The notes under the pieces were generated by a model that ran no database searches, was not told where the DNA came from, and saw only the letters and a list, made by a program, of their open reading frames with translations. A stretch of 41,714 nt of DNA from a plasmid. The stretch is taken from assembly GCF_055900595.2 (NCBI RefSeq), contig NZ_JBVWEU010000004.1; one strand, 5' to 3'. This document shows positions 2,935 to 28,372 of this stretch, one piece after another. Numbering within the stretch: the first letter of the stretch is position 1; every line of letters begins with the position of its first letter. The translations under genes and the position numbers were made by a program.

Positions 2935-3908
2935 TGTCGAATGAGAAAAGAAAAACCATCGGCAGACAGTTAAATACCCAGGCGTCAATTGCGGAAATGA
3001 CGGACACCGGTAGAAGCCAGGTATTTACCTTAAAAACCGGCAGGAAGGTAACGTTCAGGTTTGTTCGGGTGCCTGCATCTGAAGTTGAAAGTAAGACCTT
3101 CGTAAACCAGGAAAACAACGGAAGAGATCAACTTGCACTGACCAGGGAATCCCTGAAATCCATTATCCAGACGATTAAGTTTCAGCAGTTCTTTCCCTGT
3201 ATTGGTATTAAGCAAAGTGAAAGGATTGAGATACTGGATGGTTCAAGACGGCGAGCCTCAGCAATTTTTGTCCGTACAGGCCTTGATGTAATGGTTACCG
3301 AAGAGCATTTATCAGCTGATGAAGCTCGCCAACTGGCTAAAGATATCCAGACAGCTAAAGAACATAATCTTCGGGAGATTGGCCTGAGATTGATCGCTCT
3401 TAAAGAGTCCGGATTTAATCAAAAGGAAATTGCTGAACTGGAGGGGTTATCTCAAGCTAAAGTTACCAGGGCGCTGCAGGCGGCGGCCGTACCGCAAGAC
3501 TTGATTTCTCTGTTCCCGGTTCAGTCGGAGCTATCGTTTAGTGACTATAAACTTCTTTTAGAAGTTAATGAAAAACTCAGTGAAAAGGGATTAACGCCTG
3601 AAGAACTCATTCAGTCTGTATCAGCTCAGCTCGATGCAATTTTGAGTGAAGGCGAGCGACCAGAAGACGAACAGAAAGCCAGTATACTGAAGCTGATTTC
3701 TCAGGCATCTCAGGCATTGATAGATCCATCTCCCAAGGAAAAGTCAGTGGTTTCCCCACTCTGGTCTTTTGAAGAAAAGGACAAGTTCGCGCGTAAGCGT
3801 GTGAAAGGGCGTACGCTGACTTATGAGTTTAGCCGTATGTCAAAAGTGATTCAGGATGAACTGGACAAGGCTATCAACGAGGTCCTTGACAGAAATTTGA
3901 GTCAATAA
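2934..3908 (+). CDS. parB: Partition centromere-binding protein ParB/SopB family, about 324 aa
   Basis: ParB-box motif ILDGSRRRAS, HTH region QKEIAELEGLSQAKVTRAL. ATG 2934 overlaps the parA stop (GTG 2931 is an alternative start). Confidence 0.9.
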   Translation: MSNEKRKTIGRQLNTQASIAEMTDTGRSQVFTLKTGRKVTFRFVRVPASEVESKTFVNQENNGRDQLALTRESLKSIIQTIKFQQFFPCIGIKQSERIEILDGSRRRASAIFVRTGLDVMVTEEHLSADEARQLAKDIQTAKEHNLREIGLRLIALKESGFNQKEIAELEGLSQAKVTRALQAAAVPQDLISLFPVQSELSFSDYKLLLEVNEKLSEKGLTPEELIQSVSAQLDAILSEGERPEDEQKASILKLISQASQALIDPSPKEKSVVSPLWSFEEKDKFARKRVKGRTLTYEFSRMSKVIQDELDKAINEVLDRNLSQ

Positions 3909-3910
3909 TT

Positions 3911-3983
3911 TCGCCATGGCGATTTCACATCTAACTTATTGTAATTAGGCAGTTTAGGCTGAGAATTTCAAGGTGAAATCGCC
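3911..3983. promoter_or_regulatory. Candidate parS/centromere: 12-bp palindrome TCGCCATGGCGA (3911-3922) and an 11-bp perfect inverted repeat GGCGATTTCAC (3918-3928) / GTGAAATCGCC (3973-3983)
   Basis: Symmetry read directly. Located just after the parB stop, where sopC/parS normally lie. Confidence 0.35.
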
Positions 3984-5733: not shown

Positions 5734-7645
5734 TGCTCACCGGGAGACCGGTAGAGATCAAGGGGTGAAAGTCCCCGACCATTGAAGGACCAGCAATCCA
5801 CAAGGTCCCCGAGTCATGCGTTGCATACCGCGAGGTATGGGGCGAAGCGTTGACAGGGGTGTTGACAGGCCAGCCATTGAGCCACGAAATGTATATTAAA
5901 TTACCGGGTGCCGACGTTGTACTGTTAACGGAAGGCAACATCATAGGGTGCGATACTGCGAGTGCCACATGGACCCGGCGGGGTCTGAGACCCTGGCATG
6001 TCAATACGATCTCTACGCGGGAACCGGGAGATCTCCCCTCTGACCATCTGCCAGTGTCGGAGACGGCCCGCACCGGGAAGACGAGGAGTCATAGCCGGTG
6101 ATGTACGGAGAGGAGAAGTCGGACTCGCTCATAGTAGCGGCGAAGCAGGCGAACAACCCGAAAGGAGCGGAGTCAGTGGAGCGAAGGAGCGGGGCCAAGG
6201 GGAACGCGGAACAGCCACACATGCGCCGGACACAGAGCCGGGAAAGCATGTCACAGAGGCTGTCACGCGTGCGGGAAGCTGCGAAGCAGCGGAAGAAAGA
6301 ACGGTTTACAGCATTGTTCCACCTGCTGACAGTCGAAGCACTGGAAGCCGCATTCCTCTCCCTGAGCAGGAAAGCGGCCGCCGGAGTGGATGGCATCAGG
6401 TGGATGGACTACGCCGGAAACATGAAGAACAACATAACAGATCTGCACCGGAGGCTACATTAGGGCAGCTACAGGGCGCAGCCCGGCAGGCGTCACTACA
6501 TCCCAAAAGCGGATGGAAAACAACGCCCGCTCGGCATCGCCTCGCTGGAGGACAAGATCGTCCAGTATGCGCTGGTGAAAATCCTGAACGCAGTCTATGA
6601 AAACGACTTTATGGGGTTCTCATACGGGTTCAGACCCGGGCGAAGCCAGCACGATGCACTGGACGCACTGGCCACAGGGCTGGTACGCACTAACGTAAAC
6701 TGGGTACTGGATGCCGACATCAGTCAGTTCTTCGACAGGGTGAGCCACGAATGGCTGATCAGGTTCACAGAGCATCGGATCGGCGACCGGAGCGTAATCA
6801 GGCTCATACGTAAGTGGCTCACAGCCGGGACGTTGGAGGAGGGTCAATGGCGAGCAACGGAGGAAGGCACCCCACAGGGTGCGGTCATCTCACCGCTGCT
6901 GGCAAACATATACCTCCACTACGTCTTCGATCTGTGGGCGCATCAGTGGCGACGTCGCTATGCCACAGGCAATGTGGTAATGGTCAGATACGCCGATGAC
7001 ATCGTCATCGGGTTCGACAAACGATACGATGCCCGGCGCTTCCGTATAGCCATGCAGCGCAGACTGAGGGAGTTCGGACTCACGGTTCACCCGGAGAAAA
7101 CCCGTCTGATGGAGTTCGGCCGCTTCGCTGCCGAAAACCGTGCCATCAGGGGAAAAGGCAAACCAGAAACGTTCAACTTCCTCGGGTTCACGCACATCAG
7201 CGGGAAAGATCGCAACGGCAGGTTCATGCTGATACGAAAGACCCGCCGGGATCGGATGACGGCAACTCTGAAAGCCATCAAAGACGGTCTGCGAAGGCGC
7301 TGGCATTACTCAATCCCCGAACAGGGAAAATGGCTCAGGAGAGTGGTTCAGGGATACCTGAACTATCACTCGGTACCGGGCAACTTCCCCACCATGCAGA
7401 AGTTCAGGACACACGTAACAAACCTCTGGCGCCGGGCGCTCAGGCGCAGGAGCCAGAAGGATGATACGACCTGGACGAAAGCAAACAAACTGGCAGCCGC
7501 ATGGCTACCAAGGGTTCGGGTTCTTCATCCATGGCCTGTGGAGCGGTTCACCGCCAGACACCCGAGGCAGGAGCCCGGTGCGTAAATCGCGCACGCCGGG
7601 ATCTGTGCGGGGGGTATCCGGTAACGGGTATCCCTACCGCGACAT
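5734..7645 (+). mobile_element. Group II intron ('retA' element); both boundaries approximate
   Basis: Structured RNA leader, an RT/maturase ORF in domain IV position, and a GC hairpin tail ending ...CCCTACCGCGACAT. Only about 365 nt precede the ORF and there is no clean GUGYG 5-prime end. Confidence 0.7.
6098..7585 (+). pseudogene. retA: Group II intron reverse transcriptase/maturase interrupted by a single in-frame TAG (6461-6463)
   Basis: ORFs 6098..6463 and 6575..7585 share one frame. The read-through gives [40 protein letters not shown]. RT motifs FRPGRSQHDAL and YADD are present. Confidence 0.85.
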
Positions 7646-8449: not shown

Positions 8450-8752
8450 AACCAGTTCACCACCTACTCGCTCCGCGATTGTGGCAGTCTTCGAAATCCC
8501 CGGACGATCCGCCTTTATGAAAGTCTTGCTCAATTCAAATCTTCAGGCTTATGGGTTACTACTCATGCTTGGTTAAATGACCGTTTCGTCTTACCGGAAT
8601 CCCAGCAGAAGAACTTGGCAGAGTTGAAACGATCTTTCCTTGATCCTGCACTCAAGCAGATAAATGAGAAAACACCTTTACTTGCTAAGTATAGTATTGA
8701 TGATTCAGGAAAATTTCTGTTCTCAATAATTGATAAGCAAAATCCCGTCTGA
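8450..8752 (+). pseudogene. 3-prime 100 codons of a second, paralogous Rep_3 initiator gene, truncated by IS1
   Basis: In-frame translation from 8450 (NQFTTYSLRDCGSLRNPRTIRLYESLAQFKSSGLWVTTHAWL...INEKTPL...) is roughly 60% identical to the C-terminus of the Rep at 145-867. Confidence 0.85.
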
Positions 8753-8803
8753 CATAAATCAGCACACATGAGCCTGTCATTTGACAAATTTTTGTCATGA
8801 AGA

Positions 8804-9155
8804 TGGGCGGATTTCCACACAGCACCGGCGCCCGGTAAGGTGGGCGGATTCCCACACGGCACCGGCGCCCGGCAAGATGGGCGGATTTCCACACAGCACC
8901 GGCGCCCGGTAAGGTGGGCGGATTTCCACACAGCACCGGCGCCCGGCAAGGTGGGCGGATTCCCACACGGCACCGGCGCCCGGCAAGATGGGCGGATTTC
9001 CACACAGCACCGGCGCCCGGTAAGGTGGGCGGATTTCCACACAGCACCGGCGCCCGGCAAGGTGGGCGGATTCCCACACGGCACCGGCGCGCGGCAAGGT
9101 GGGCGGATTTCCACACGGCACCGGCGCCCGGCAAGGTGGGCCGATTCCCATATCG
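8804..9155 (+). repeat. Second iteron array: 10 copies of a 37-bp unit (G/A)TGGGCGGATT(T/C)CCACAC(A/G)GCACCGGCGCCCGG(C/T)AAG, starts 8804-9137, with a 111-bp higher-order pattern
   Basis: Periodicity counted directly. Same position relative to the truncated rep as array 928-1337, with a related core (TTTCCACACAG vs TTTCCCACAG). Confidence 0.9.
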
Positions 9156-9641
9156 ACATGTATGTAGCTTGTGTTATCTGTGGATTGTGCAGCTCAGCGG
9201 GTCGCTGGTCGTATGGCGGAGTGTCCCCCGTAACCGGCCGCGTGCGGCCGCTAACGCGCAGTACGGCGCCGCGTCCCGCAGACGGGCCGCCGTTCCCGCG
9301 CGCAGCACTGCGCACCCCCGTGGGGGACGTACGGCAGCTGCGTGGCGGTGAGCGGGATTAGGGCTTTGCAGCTACCGTGTTAAGTTCCCTGGTGTCGCTG
9401 AAATAGTTGATGAACATCCCCCTAAGCGTCAGCAGCAAGCTGCCGCCGCTTAGGCCCCGGAAATCACGCCCTTTACGTCGTAAACGCCGTAAAGCCCGCT
9501 CACCGGGGTTAAAAGGGATTACTTTGACTTCTTCATTGCTGTTCGCGAGTTAAGGCTAATCAGGGCAGGGGGTAGGGTGGCAGAATTTATAGCCCGGCAA
9601 CCGGCTACGCCGGGCTTTCGGCGCCATTTTACAACACAGAC

Positions 9642-10698
9642 GGCTTTGTTGAATAAATCGAACTTTTGCTGAGTTGAAGGATCAGATCACGCATCTTCCC
9701 GACAACGCAGACCATTCCGTGGCAAAGCAAAAGTTCAAAATAACCAACTGGCCCACCTACAATAAAGCCCTCATCAACCGTGGCTCCATAACTTTCTGGC
9801 TGGATGATGAAGCTATTCAGGCCTGGTATGAGTCGGCAACGCCTTCATCACGGGGAAGACCTCAGCGCTATTCTGATCTCGCCATCACCACCGTTCTGGT
9901 CATTAAACGCGTGTTCAGGTTGACCCTGCGGGCTGCACAGGGTTTTATTGATTCCATTTTTACACTGATGAATGTTCCGTTGCGCTGCCCGGATTACACC
10001 AGTGTCAGCAAGCGCGCAAAGTCGGTTAATGTCAGTTTCAAAACGTTCACCCGGGGTGAAATCGCGCATCTGGTGATTGATTCCACCGGGCTGAAGGTCT
10101 TTGGTGAAGGCGAATGGAAAGTCAAAAAGCATGGCCAGGAACGCCGTCGTATATGGCGAAAGTTGCATCTGGCAGTTGACAGCAACACACATGAAATCAT
10201 CTGTGCAAACCTGTCGCTGAACAATGTGACGGACTCAGAAGCCTTCCCGGGTCTTATCCGGCAGACTCACAGAAAAATCAGGGCAGCATCGGCAGACGGC
10301 GCTTACGACACCCAACTCTGTCACGATGAACTGCGGCGTAAGAAAATCAGCGCGCTTATCCCGCCCCGAAAAGGCGCGGGTTACTGGCCCGGTGAATATG
10401 CAGACCGTAACCGTGCTGTTGCGAATCAGCGGCTGACCGGGAGTAATGCGCGGTGGAAATGGACAACAGATTACAACCGTCGCTCGATAGCGGAAACGGC
10501 GATGTACCGGGTAAAACAGCTGTTCGGAGGTTCACTGACACTGCGTGACTACGATGGTCAGGTTGCAGAGGCTATGGCCCTGGTACGAGCGCTGAACAAA
10601 ATGACGAAAGCAGGTATGCCTGAAAGCGTGCGTATTGCCTGAAAACACAACCCGCTACGGGGGAGACTTACCCGAAATCTGATTTATTCAACAAAGCC
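9642..10698 (+). mobile_element. IS903-like insertion sequence (IS5 family), 1057 bp, complete
   Basis: 18-bp terminal inverted repeats GGCTTTGTTGAATAAATC / GATTTATTCAACAAAGCC. The sequence matches the recalled IS903 left end. Confidence 0.9.
9674..10642 (+). CDS. IS903 DDE transposase (ORF track 322 aa; GTG at 9719 would give the expected 307 aa)
   Basis: Single long ORF filling the IS. IS5-family transposase sequence. Confidence 0.88.
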   Translation: MKDQITHLPDNADHSVAKQKFKITNWPTYNKALINRGSITFWLDDEAIQAWYESATPSSRGRPQRYSDLAITTVLVIKRVFRLTLRAAQGFIDSIFTLMNVPLRCPDYTSVSKRAKSVNVSFKTFTRGEIAHLVIDSTGLKVFGEGEWKVKKHGQERRRIWRKLHLAVDSNTHEIICANLSLNNVTDSEAFPGLIRQTHRKIRAASADGAYDTQLCHDELRRKKISALIPPRKGAGYWPGEYADRNRAVANQRLTGSNARWKWTTDYNRRSIAETAMYRVKQLFGGSLTLRDYDGQVAEAMALVRALNKMTKAGMPESVRIA

Positions 10699-10781
10699 GC
10701 GCGGGGCTAACAGGTAAGATGAAATTAAGGTTTTACGAACACTGCCACTGTAATTAATTACCGCTACTTTCATAAATCACC

Positions 10782-11168
10782 TCAGAATTTTTTGTTGAAC
10801 TTCTTAGGGTCGAAATTCTCACCGATTTTCTTGAAGAATTCTTTATCAATAATGCCGGGACTCTCTGCTTTTTTACTTTCCTGCACTTCAGGCTCAGACG
10901 GTTGTGTATTGTGCAATACACTTTCCGCTGCACCCTTCGCGCTACTCTTATCATGCGTATTGTGCAATACATTTTTTCGGTTTTGCCGCGTTCTATACAG
11001 TGCCATCTCAAGCCCTTTGGCTGTTACCGAAAAGCTGTATTCGCTGTCGAGGATTTCAGCAATTTCATGCCGCGTTAGCCCTCTGTCCAGCCAGTTCTCG
11101 ATTTCATTTAGGCGCAATCTGACAGCAGCCGATAAGTTGCGGGGTTTCAGATCTGCTGGTTTATTCAT
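10782..11168 (-). CDS. Hypothetical 128-aa protein with an N-terminal HTH-like segment (DRGLTRHEIAEILD) and a low-complexity, lysine-rich tail
   Basis: ORF with RBS GGAGGGGG. Preceded by an 11-bp-phased repeat array. No family recognised. Confidence 0.6.
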   Translation of the reverse strand: MNKPADLKPRNLSAAVRLRLNEIENWLDRGLTRHEIAEILDSEYSFSVTAKGLEMALYRTRQNRKNVLHNTHDKSSAKGAAESVLHNTQPSEPEVQESKKAESPGIIDKEFFKKIGENFDPKKFNKKF

Positions 11169-11229
11169 AACCCCCTCCGTTGTATGAAAATGACTCTACA
11201 ACACTCGTAAGAAGGGGTCAATCGAGTTT

Positions 11230-11380
11230 TGTAGTTTATCTGTAGTTTTATTGTAGTCTATTTGTAGTCTGTCACGTTTTTTGTAGTTTATTTGTAGTTT
11301 TATTGTAGTCTATTTGTAGTCTTACAACACTAAGGCAAAACGTTTTTTGTAGTTTATCTGTAGTTTATCTGTAGTTTTTG
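11230..11380. repeat. Eleven TGTAGT(T/C)T(A/T)T(C/T) units at strict 11-bp phasing in three clusters (4 at 11230-11270, 4 at 11282-11322, 3 at 11348-11380). Clusters 1 and 2 are a 52-bp-offset duplication (40/41 identical)
   Basis: Unit starts counted at 11230, 11241, 11252, 11263, 11282, 11293, 11304, 11315, 11348, 11359 and 11370. TACAACACT flanks lie at 11197 and 11323. Confidence 0.85.
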
Positions 11381-11388
11381 GTTGCTCA

Positions 11389-11412
11389 GATGGTCATGCA
11401 AGCATGACCATC
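11389..11412. repeat. Perfect 11-bp inverted repeat GATGGTCATGC-AA-GCATGACCATC
   Basis: Read directly. Lies between the TGTAGT array and an AT-rich tract that has further short repeats (CCCTTAACCT x2, GCGTGAT-AA-ATCACGC, GGTATTAC x2, ACTGATTTAAA x2). Confidence 0.8.
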
Positions 11413-11716
11413 AAAGAATAGGACGCTTTTTAGCCAAATGCCCCTTAACCTACGGAGATCGCCCTACCAAAAAAAGATGATTTTTTATCCCTTAACCTGC
11501 TATACACCTAACGCAGCGTGATAAATCACGCTATCGCACTGATTTAAAAGAAAAAAAACAAAATTTAGCCATGCTGCGGTATTACCCAGGTATTACAAAT
11601 CAAATCTAAATTACTGATTTAAATAACTTTTTATTTATTACTTTGGTAATACTATGATTTCACCGTATTAGACACCCTTTTTTCGTTTAAAAAATGCACA
11701 AATTGAGGACTGAATG

Positions 11717-11981
11717 GGCTTTGTTGAATAAATCGAACTTTTGCTGAGTTGAAGGATCAGATCACGCATCTTCCCGACAACGCAGACCGTTCCGTGGCAA
11801 AGCAAAAGTTCAAAATAACCAACTGGCCCACCTACAATAAAGCCCTCATCAACCGTGGCTCCATAACTTTCTGGCTGGATGATGAAGCTATTCAGGCCTG
11901 GTATGAGTCAGCAACACCTTCTTCACGAGGCAGACCTCAGCGCTATTCTGACCTTGCCATCACGACTGTGCTGGTCATTAA
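11717..11981 (+). mobile_element. IS903 left-end fragment (265 bp), truncated by the Tn1721 IR
   Basis: Near-identical to 9642-9906. Homology ends at CATTAA|GGGGAGCCC. Confidence 0.9.
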
Positions 11982-12019
11982 GGGGAGCCCGCAGAATTCG
12001 GAAAAAATCGTACGCTAAG
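11982..12019 (+). repeat. Tn1721-type 38-bp terminal inverted repeat (IRR-II)
   Basis: GGGGAGCCCGCAGAATTCGGAAAAAATCGTACGCTAAG, as recalled for Tn1721. Confidence 0.9.
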
Positions 12020-16520: not shown

Positions 16521-17171
16521 ATGACAAAGTTGCAGCCGAATACAGTGATCCGTGCCGCCCTGGACCTGTTGAACGAGGTCGGCGTAGACGGTCTGACGAC
16601 ACGCAAACTGGCGGAACGGTTGGGGGTTCAGCAGCCGGCGCTTTACTGGCACTTCAGGAACAAGCGGGCGCTGCTCGACGCACTGGCCGAAGCCATGCTG
16701 GCGGAGAATCATACGCATTCGGTGCCGAGAGCCGACGACGACTGGCGCTCATTTCTGATCGGGAATGCCCGCAGCTTCAGGCAGGCGCTGCTCGCCTACC
16801 GCGATGGCGCGCGCATCCATGCCGGCACGCGACCGGGCGCACCGCAGATGGAAACGGCCGACGCGCAGCTTCGCTTCCTCTGCGAGGCGGGTTTTTCGGC
16901 CGGGGACGCCGTCAATGCGCTGATGACAATCAGCTACTTCACTGTTGGGGCCGTGCTTGAGGAGCAGGCCGGCGACAGCGATGCCGGCGAGCGCGGCGGC
17001 ACCGTTGAACAGGCTCCGCTCTCGCCGCTGTTGCGGGCCGCGATAGACGCCTTCGACGAAGCCGATCCGGACGCAGCGTTCGAGCAGGGACTCGCGGTGA
17101 TTGTCGATGGATTGGCGAAAAGGAGGCTCGTTGTCAGGAACGTTGAAGGACCGAGAAAGGGTGACGATTGA
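16521..17171 (+). CDS. tetR: Tetracycline repressor TetR, class A, 216 aa from ATG 16521
   Basis: MTKLQPNTVIRAALDLLNEVGVDGLTTRKLAERLGVQQPALYWHFRNKRALLDAL. Confidence 0.93.
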   Translation: MTKLQPNTVIRAALDLLNEVGVDGLTTRKLAERLGVQQPALYWHFRNKRALLDALAEAMLAENHTHSVPRADDDWRSFLIGNARSFRQALLAYRDGARIHAGTRPGAPQMETADAQLRFLCEAGFSAGDAVNALMTISYFTVGAVLEEQAGDSDAGERGGTVEQAPLSPLLRAAIDAFDEADPDAAFEQGLAVIVDGLAKRRLVVRNVEGPRKGDD

Positions 17172-27802: not shown

Positions 27803-27872
27803 TCGATGTTTGATGTTATGGAGCAGCAACGATGTTACGCAGCAGGGCAGACGCCCTAAAACAAAGTTAGCC
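27803..27872 (+). other. attI1 recombination site (crossover at G|TTAGCC 27866-27872)
   Basis: GATGTTATGGAGCAGCAACGATGTTACGCAGCAGGGCAG.CGCCCTAAAACAAAGTTAGCC. Confidence 0.85.
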
Positions 27873-27874
27873 AT

Positions 27875-28372
27875 ATGAACTCGGAATCAGTACGCATTTA
27901 TCTCGTTGCTGCGATGGGAGCCAATCGGGTTATTGGCAATGGTCCTAATATCCCCTGGAAAATTCCGGGTGAGCAGAAGATTTTTCGCAGACTCACTGAG
28001 GGAAAAGTCGTTGTCATGGGGCGAAAGACCTTTGAGTCTATCGGCAAGCCTCTACCGAACCGTCACACATTGGTAATCTCACGCCAAGCTAACTACCGCG
28101 CCACTGGCTGCGTAGTTGTTTCAACGCTGTCGCACGCTATCGCTTTGGCATCCGAACTCGGCAATGAACTCTACGTCGCGGGCGGAGCTGAGATATACAC
28201 TCTGGCACTACCTCACGCCCACGGCGTGTTTCTATCTGAGGTACATCAAACCTTCGAGGGTGACGCCTTCTTCCCAATGCTCAACGAAACAGAATTCGAG
28301 CTTGTCTCAACCGAAACCATTCAAGCTGTAATTCCGTACACCCACTCCGTTTATGCGCGTCGAAACGGCTAA
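27875..28372 (+). CDS. dfrA12: Trimethoprim-resistant dihydrofolate reductase DfrA12, 165 aa
   Basis: MNSESVRIYLVAAMGANRVIGNGPNIPWKIPGEQKIFRRLTEGKVVVMGRKTFESIGKPLPNRHTLVISRQANY... Confidence 0.93.
   Translation: MNSESVRIYLVAAMGANRVIGNGPNIPWKIPGEQKIFRRLTEGKVVVMGRKTFESIGKPLPNRHTLVISRQANYRATGCVVVSTLSHAIALASELGNELYVAGGAEIYTLALPHAHGVFLSEVHQTFEGDAFFPMLNETEFELVSTETIQAVIPYTHSVYARRNG

Follow-up and report, generated by a model that had tools for sequence, protein, structure and literature searches.

The stbA gene of the window and its two dyads

The stretch of plasmid DNA analysed here, referred to throughout as the window (41,714 nt, NZ_JBVWEU010000004.1), carries two copies of a short inverted repeat, or dyad, inside the coding sequence of stbA, next to an origin of transfer (oriT). 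The host open reading frame (ORF) codes for an IncN-type StbA protein (NCBIfam NF041290, StbA_2; E=7.8e-61, 204 bits, cut-off 100), and the stbA region matched 1,753 plasmid records, with StbA or stbA annotation among the records listed. Iterons and a nic region lie upstream of the gene, and a stub of stbB, with no stbC, lies downstream (Table 1). In a single-sequence AlphaFold2 model of StbA the pLDDT was 78-87 at aa 21-60 and 50-60 at aa 71-110, and the low confidence at aa ~70-110, where the dyads are encoded, agrees with what has been described for R388 StbA, whose C-terminal half is disordered and little conserved (bioRxiv 10.1101/2022.04.29.490116).

A first-pass annotation of this DNA had reported two 7-2-7 palindromes 51 bp apart. 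Both copies, their spacing and the VLHNT peptide repeat that they produce in the 128-aa ORF were confirmed, but only the copy at 10905 is a perfect 7-2-7; the outermost pair of the copy at 10956 is broken (C..A), which leaves a 6-2-6. The exact 14-mer GTATTGTGCAATAC occurs twice in the window, 51 bp apart, and when up to two mismatches were allowed on both strands four matches were obtained against 0.23 expected, four or more being reached in none of 100 shuffles. Each dyad belongs to one unit of a direct repeat (22 nt, 91% identical, the same 51-bp spacing). A lone 7-2-7 palindrome is not unusual in the window (nine against about three in shuffles), and the case is therefore built on the duplication and the comparison between plasmids. 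The features above chance are the duplication and, most of all, the conservation across plasmids.

Nucleotides are conserved while the peptide changes

The dyad-bearing unit of stbA measures 45-51 bp and occurs once, twice or three times in different alleles. Identity between alleles reaches 88.6% within the 16-mer, against 38.8% in the 15-nt flanks. The IncN1 and IncN2 StbA proteins, which are 33-36% identical to that of the window, are encoded with T-GTA-TTG-CAC-AAT-ACA exact in every copy, and the 16-mer of the 10905 copy is found unchanged in both these stbA genes and at the promoter of an SprT-like gene in plasmid RIP113. The codon preceding the dyad is always NNT, whether AGT, TCT, CCT, GAT, AAT, GGT or ACT (seven codons, six amino acids), and both this wobble position and the synonymous positions of the dyad codons are invariant.

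The encoded peptide shows no such constancy (loci are designated by L numbers where they have to be told apart). In the pKP037-3 clade, T-GGA-TTG-CAC-AAT-CCA (TGGATTG..CAATCCA) encodes GLHNP; in the Pseudomonas putida plasmid and in L140-L141, TGGATTGCGCAATCCA is read in a frame shifted by one base and yields VDCAIQ; and in L154, TGTTTCGTACGAAACA (TGTTTCG-TA-CGAAACA) yields VSYET. A tandem repeat maintained for its peptide should keep the peptide and let the codons drift, and here it is the peptide that varies, even across frames, over an unchanging nucleotide pattern. The first-pass annotation had offered an intragenic operator as one interpretation, to be given up if homologues kept the peptide and lost the nucleotide symmetry and no protein bound the sites. 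The alignment of homologues gave the reverse of the first of these outcomes, and the idea of an operator has gained from it, as the symmetry is conserved independently of codons, frame and peptide and the same dyad overlaps promoters elsewhere. These comparisons indicate that selection on the DNA itself maintains a 16-bp site, of which the stbA dyads are copies and the VLHNT repeat a by-product.

The dyad at promoters of SprT-like genes

Outside stbA the dyad is repeatedly met in front of genes for SprT-like proteins, in which a PF10263 domain containing HExxH is followed by an acidic linker and, at the C terminus, by a CxxC..CGxxxC zinc ribbon. These genes, monocistronic in most loci, are present in at least 2,619 sequenced plasmids. 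The dyad conforms to the consensus TG[T/G]A[T/A][T/C]G-NN-C[A/G][A/T]T[A/C]CA. Complete plasmids carry their own variant again directly behind the final gene of the stb operon and 13-25 bp upstream of the SprT-like start codon. In plasmids RIP113 and pCRE10.4 the arm is TGTATTG at the SprT promoter, the operon end and stbA alike; pKP037-3 has TGGATTG at all five of its sites, and the P. putida plasmid has TGGATTG at four of four, with the centre CG at three and CA at one; L154 combines TGTTTCG and TGTATCG. Each stbA variant matches the SprT promoter dyad or dyads of the same plasmid, either exactly or in the arms. Four StbA lineages have dyads in stbA, which are read in two different frames and in every case have the arms of the local operator; this recurrence argues for the stbA copies being functional.

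The pairing of dyad and SprT-like gene extends over IncN, IncX3, IncX4 and IncP-like backbones and most metagenomic relatives, and the main home of the dyad appears from this distribution to be the promoter of the SprT-like protease gene in many plasmid families. A scan of species genomes by the pattern alone gave mostly chance matches, but two or more symmetric sites were present together at six loci. Two of the six were IncN-type and three, from Roseateles, Methylobacter and Photorhabdus, were non-IncN loci with the sites directly upstream of SprT-like genes; the sixth, L079 from a metagenome-assembled genome of Christensenella, was left out of the neighbourhood count. From the opposite side, 80 metagenomic SprT loci were fetched starting from the SprT-like protein, about 45 of which had a perfect dyad no more than 160 bp upstream of the gene. 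Matches to TG.A..G..C..T.CA in these 80 loci were fully symmetric in 64 of 92 cases, against an expectation of 1/64. Two-fold symmetry, as expected of an operator, is kept by compensatory change: at least six compensated variants were found among the symmetric sites within 160 bp of the start of the SprT-like gene, the variants being TGTATTG/CAATACA, TGGATTG/CAATCCA, TGTATCG/CGATACA, TGGATCG/CGATCCA, TGTAATG/CATTACA and TGGAATG/CATTCCA, around centres that read CA, TG, CG or TA.

The dyads at SprT loci are situated on or beside sigma70-like -35, -10 and +1 elements and so have the behaviour of operators that work in duplex DNA. Two dyads enclose a TATAAT in L074 and in L187, and in L162 the dyad occupies the spacer and the -10 of TTGACT-17-TACAAT. 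This overlap with promoters, also expected of an operator, is a property of the related loci and is not seen for the two intragenic copies of the window.

Several other arrangements were noted around these sites. Longer palindromes enclose the dyad in some lineages, as TGATTC-dyad-GAATCA, TGAATC-dyad-GATTCA and TATTATC-dyad-GATAATA (L010 ~1696-1723; L154 ~2652-2679; L221 8018-8045), so that the recognised site may there exceed 16 bp. An element of ~85 nt, GCGTTAGGGATTGAAGCCCGAAGGGGCGAGACAGCTTGCCTGGCTCGATGCGCAGCACGAAAGCCCGCCCCGCAGGGAACGCC, is present in four copies in pKP037-3 (L014 9400-9500, 12406-12500, 13029-13125 and 14144-14240) and has been conserved in unrelated plasmids as well, immediately upstream of their SprT operators (L140/L141 ~3860-3930; L155). 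Its complementary ends could form a long hairpin, for example a promoter active in single-stranded DNA or a CUP-like element of the leading region; neither the element nor the dyads matched Rfam at the gathering score. The operon-end and SprT-promoter dyads are 12 bp apart in pKP037-3 (L014 9509/9537), and in IncN1 and IncN2 they flank a 6-7-kb accessory block of the leading region (L013 3861 vs 10752; L015 1178 vs 36439), which is inverted in IncN1. The arrangement gives the impression that rearrangement at the dyads has separated the two sites of what was once a single promoter.

The SprT-like protein as candidate ligand

We consider it probable, on balance, that the dyad is an operator with intragenic copies in stbA and that it is bound by the SprT-like protein, acting as an autorepressor. 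The comparison of loci supports, at the level of sequence, nucleotide-level selection, co-variation of the sites within each plasmid, overlap with promoters and co-variation between protein and operator; the binding of a protein, its identity and the effect that binding would have inside stbA are what we infer from it.

The co-variation concerns two places in the protein. In the motif xSN[R]xKYxC, just before the ribbon, R was found in 54 of 54 loci with ATTG-type operators and K in eight of nine with ATCG-type operators; on a neighbour-joining tree the changes R to K and T to C are required four times each, and the four K lineages are the sequences with C at operator position 6. In GGxxxG[Q/E/D], Q accompanies only TGT (30/30) and E only TGG (15/15), and operators of the AATG type accompany SG[K/Q/V]R. 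Five further plasmids follow the rules, four of them being close relatives of loci already in the set. Since the SprT-like gene is the only constant neighbour of the dyad, is mostly monocistronic and encodes a protein that co-varies with the operator, autoregulation is favoured. In IncX3 the operator and the SprT-like gene are present and there is no KorA-family gene, and the small ORFs around the SprT-like gene contain no DNA-binding domain recognised by Pfam. A search of PDB sequences with the SprT-like profile returned a weak match to Spartan only.

Two further candidates were rejected. StbA is excluded as the binder because its iteron types (ACTACA; TACATCA/TACACCA; GGGACA) follow the StbA clade and are independent of the dyad type. 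On inspection, some copies of the dyad resemble a LexA box (CTGT..ACAG), but with a spacing of N10 instead of N8, and the TGG variants lack the resemblance.

A number of observations weigh against an operator read by the SprT-like protein. We know of no SprT/Spartan-type protease that reads DNA sequence, and the protein has no recognisable helix-turn-helix, PF10263 being the only domain found. The D residue of the GGxxxG[Q/E/D] column accompanies both types of site, L201 is an exception to the R/K rule, and the deep branches of the neighbour-joining tree used for the co-variation are poorly resolved. Within stbA, the spacings of the dyads (33-51 bp) are not helically phased, and the stbA genes of L142, L144, L155 and L187 have no internal sites although they stand beside SprT-like genes, which implies that a role in stbA is dispensable. 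The window itself contains no stbC, SprT-like, ardK, traK or KorA-family gene, as judged from its ORFs and by tblastn, and so lacks the partner genes. No description of the dyads was found in the literature on the sequence, StbA, IncN, CUP or SprT, a search that did not cover the 1999 paper on the pKM101 leading region. Finally, IncN1 CUP promoters carry TACTTGTATTGAC, the 13-nt ArdK consensus, which contains the 7-nt dyad arm TGTATTG.

Alternative explanations

This last observation belongs to the best-placed alternative, in which the dyad would again be an operator with intragenic copies, bound by a plasmid repressor of the KorA/TrfB family (ArdK in IncN) that controls the 'establishment' genes of the leading region; we give it a rather low probability. 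A probe with a related copy of the ArdK consensus was shifted in an electrophoretic mobility shift assay (PMC6289460), the R388 ArdK operator is GTATTGACACCTATTGACA (GTATTGACA..TATTGACA), with repression by ArdK also possible when the site is arranged as an inverted repeat (PMC9723621), and the RK2 KorA operator GTTTAGCTAAAC (PMC2680271) resembles the TGTTTCG-TA-CGAAACA of L154. The repeats of pKP037-3 read GGATTGA where its dyads read GGATTG. KorA-family genes occur in three of three IncN-type plasmids, in L074/L219 and in L220, and ardK adjoins the SprT-like gene in IncN1. If KorA or ArdK were the ligand, a KorA/TrfB gene should accompany the dyad on every replicon, but the IncX3 plasmid pEC25_NDM-7 has a perfect dyad at its SprT-like operon and no KorA-family ORF (hmmsearch, E<10), and a KorA-like gene is present in only 12 loci, eight of the 80 metagenomic ones plus L013, L014, L015 and L074. 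The IncN2 CUPs are AATATTGAC, and the promoters of the KorA-like genes themselves have CTATTGAC (L074, L159) or ACATTGAC (IncN2), which in both cases share only ATTG or TATTG with the dyad; no dyad was found upstream of a KorA-family gene among the genes examined.

In the 42-kb IncN1 plasmid L013, TGTATTG is fused to the -35 in five of five CUP promoters (7454, 8796, 10005, 5105(-) and 1735(-)), as part of TACTTGTATTGAC, and all but two of its occurrences in this plasmid fall in a CUP or a dyad. As the heptamer is common to CUPs and dyads, cross-talk between ArdK and the dyad-binding protein is possible.

A different reading takes the palindromes as hairpins in single-stranded nucleic acid, either the transferred strand entering the recipient or the stbA mRNA, with a function in priming, as a promoter of single-stranded DNA, in protein loading or in RNA stability. 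The compensatory changes preserve pairing, stbA comes directly after nic on the strand bearing the nic sequence and is the first gene to enter, in the leading region (PMC3098194), and two identical palindromes can pair with each other. The reading is nonetheless improbable. Base identity is conserved beyond what pairing requires (TG.A..G/C..T.CA), a 2-nt centre cannot form a loop, and asymmetric hybrid sites such as TGTATTGCACAATCCA exist. Folding z-scores of -1.9 (RNA) and -2.2 (DNA) fell short of those of a structured element, no Rfam match was obtained at the gathering score, and the sites of SprT genes lie on the -35, -10 and +1 of duplex-type promoters.

Slightly less likely again, and very improbable, is a function as recombination or relaxase (nic-like) sites, as crossover sites of a site-specific recombinase or secondary targets of MOB-F relaxases. 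The case for recombination is circumstantial. Crossover sites of serine recombinases have a 2-bp centre of this kind, the 45-51-bp unit varies between one and three copies, and the extragenic dyads stand either 12 bp apart, in pKP037-3, or around the 6-7-kb block that is inverted in IncN1. Slippage between repeats of 16-22 nt explains the change in copy number equally well, however, and position at promoters accounts for the conservation without recombination. As to relaxases, TGCGTATTGT in the 10956 copy is a 10-nt match to the sequence beside R388 nic, and the first-pass annotation had seen a MOB-F nic resemblance in 'GCGTATTGT'. This resemblance did not survive: it is confined to the first copy in the allele of the window, to which the 10-nt match is likewise specific, and lies on the non-transferred strand, the real nic is elsewhere on the other strand (Table 1), the nic core T/ATAGC (GCGTATTGTCT/ATAGC in R388 nic) is absent, and the dyad also occurs in MOBP plasmids.

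The last alternative, a footprint of internal duplication or a functional VLHNT linear motif with accidental palindromy, is scarcely credible, for although the two units are indeed diverged tandem duplicates, both ending in ..AES/GAAAGT and varying from one to three copies, which upholds that much of the duplication first suspected, an identity of 88.6% in the 16-mer against 38.8% in the flanks is more than a mere footprint, GLHNP, VSYET and VDCAIQ replace VLHNT with the symmetry kept and in one case in another frame, the synonymous and preceding wobble positions are invariant, and the same 16-mer stands in non-coding promoters.

Possible roles of the stbA copies

In the mechanism that we propose, a plasmid-encoded protein would recognise the dyad on double-stranded DNA as a symmetric dimer, with the site at the SprT-like promoter serving as the primary operator. 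The SprT-like protein, as the likeliest binder, would repress its own promoter. In IncN-type and some other oriT-stbABC plasmids, the coding sequence of the disordered StbA linker would have acquired additional copies, with another placed at the end of the stb operon. An auxiliary role is plausible for the stbA copies, which may loop to the SprT promoter and oriT or raise the local concentration of the protein there; alternatively, they might form a roadblock that lowers read-through into stbB and stbC, or might bring the protein into the vicinity of oriT and of the complex formed by StbA.

A bolder version, which we hold to be rather unlikely, is that SprT-like proteins are sequence-specific, dyad-reading, DNA-dependent proteases that repress their own promoter and, held by the dyads of stbA and of the operon end at a few hundred bp from oriT and the StbA centromere, process a DNA-bound protein, be it the relaxase in covalent linkage at nic or the StbA complex. 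Were this version correct, it would couple establishment or partition with conjugation.

An orphaned module in the window

The module of the window is orphaned: it consists of oriT, stbA and the stbB stub between flanks of the IS903 family and has no partner genes. The stbB gene has been cut by an IS903-family element (IS5/IS903 transposase ORF). With the partner genes absent and stbB truncated, the dyads of the window are probably idle unless a co-resident plasmid supplies the binding protein. The allele of L002 has a single unit with a broken arm, and neither stbB nor stbC is annotated at that locus, for which no MOB type was called; this broken arm and the lost outer pair of copy 1 in the window are consistent with relaxed selection. 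The iterons of the window are not partners of the dyads. A scan for promoters found none inside stbA and no promoter-like site near either dyad, and the nic region was identified by eye, by aligning the same block in other IncN-type loci and the R388 nic GCGTATTGTCTATAGC.

Table 1. Positions of the dyads and of the surrounding features in the window.
Feature	Position	Strand	Sequence	Remarks
Dyad copy 2 (gene order)	10905..10920		TGTATTGTGCAATACA (+ strand)	TGTATTG-TG-CAATACA, perfect 7-2-7; minus strand codes S-VLHNT-Q (aa 84-88)
Dyad copy 1 (gene order)	10956..10971		CGTATTGTGCAATACA (+ strand)	CGTATTG-TG-CAATACA, 6-2-6; codes N-VLHNT-H (aa 67-71)
stbA, 128 aa	10782..11168	-		N-terminal helical DNA-binding domain; low-confidence linker at aa ~70-110 holds the dyads
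Promoter-like site	11193..11221	-	TTGACC-17-TAGAGT	Immediately upstream of stbA; consensus scan only
11-bp iterons	11228..11377		TTGTAGTTTAT type	Presumed StbA-binding centromere/operator array, by analogy with R388 stbDR (PMC3098194)
oriT nic region	about 11490..11535	-	Inverted repeat agcgtgatttatcacgct, then gcgttaggtgtatagcagg	On the stbA-sense strand
stbB remnant	10699..10773	-		First 25 codons; 96% identity over 25 aa (tblastn)
IS903-family element	9674-10642			IS5/IS903 transposase ORF; cuts stbB
Second IS903/IS5-family copy	11749-12018			Truncated
oriT-proximal palindrome	11392-11409		GGTCATGCTTGCATGACC	Same position in L013, L014 and L015
Long ORFs in several frames	8560-9360		..PPTLPGAGAVWKSAHL..	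Repeated peptides
Rfam match	5768-5993			Group II intron domains D1-D4 (186 bits)
Rfam match	27820-27898			AAC/AAD leader / attI site (68 bits)

The two IS903/IS5-family copies bracket oriT-stbA, a layout that is also annotated in the IncR plasmid pKPS77, and when a 721-bp segment from the stbB stub through stbA to the iterons served as query, at least 80% of it was covered in 1,133 of the 1,753 matching plasmid records. The palindrome proximal to oriT has an invariant core, CATGCTTGCATG, with outer arms compensated between clades (GGT/ACC, GTATT/AATAC, ACTTT/AAAGT); the SprT operator of L185, TGCATGCAAGCATGCA, contains the same core. Farther away, the repeated peptides of the long ORFs beside the IS element point to a GC-rich tandem repeat array, and the match to the AAC/AAD leader or attI site points to a class 1 integron.

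Novelty and implications

Operator dyads, including intragenic ones, are already known as a kind. Three points appear new: the present family of dyads, the association of these with SprT-like genes in several incompatibility groups, and the SprT-like protein with sequence specificity that the association implies. Plasmids of the IncN, IncX3 and IncX4 groups are main carriers of carbapenemase and mcr genes. All three are among the plasmids with SprT-like genes, for which a conserved and co-evolving 16-bp dyad offers both a regulatory handle and a ready assay for a gene that is uncharacterised. The stbA copies also show cleanly how a cis-element can be overprinted on codons for a disordered linker, with a spurious 'peptide repeat' as the outcome that an annotation based on the protein only would misread. 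Should the SprT-like protein indeed read the dyad, sequence specificity would be seen for the first time in the SprT/Spartan group, and a protease would be tied to the oriT-stbA region, which balances plasmid segregation against transfer.

Comparison with known systems

The lac O2 site inside lacZ and the gal OI site inside galE are intragenic auxiliary operators. By analogy, the stbA dyads would likewise be repressor-type dyads placed in coding sequence, distant from the promoter operator and present in several copies per regulon. They differ in that their host gene stbA is not the regulated gene, that one to three tandem copies are embedded in a disordered linker and read in different frames, and that kilobases may separate them from the primary operator (~8.7 kb in IncN1), to which they are only proposed to loop.

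With the KorA/ArdK (TrfB) operators of IncP-1, IncW and IncN the dyads share a setting of short repeats at the promoters of leading-region or establishment genes and a TATTG/GTATTG half-site, and an inverted-repeat topology is known in that family (PMC9723621, PMC2680271, PMC6289460). Unlike those operators, the dyad is a 7-2-7, is absent from the promoters of the KorA-family genes examined, is present in IncX3, which lacks a gene of that family, and has variants that track the SprT-like protein.

The StbA-stbDR system of R388 resembles the present one in its oriT-stbABC leading-region setting and in that one protein has sites at several operons (PMC3098194), but the stbDRs are direct repeats that StbA reads through its N-terminal domain, whereas the dyads are inverted and of a type independent of StbA clade and iterons. 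R388 itself (L216) has neither such a dyad nor an SprT-like gene; the tail of its stbA (16765-16778) holds an unrelated 6-2-6 palindrome, GGCGACGTGTCGCC, and its stbDR copies (TTGCATCAT) occur at five leading-region positions besides the stbA promoter.

Members of the SprT/Spartan/Wss1 group are, to our knowledge, DNA-binding proteins without sequence specificity, and none is a transcription factor. The candidate binder shares with them its HExxH-containing SprT-like domain (PF10263), and with ArdC of R388 a location in the leading region, ArdC being a protein that combines binding of single-stranded DNA with a metalloprotease (PMC7213743). What would set the plasmid protein apart from the SprT/Spartan/Wss1 group is the sequence-specific reading of a dyad together with autoregulation, both of which, as suggested here by its co-variation with the operator, would be new for the family.

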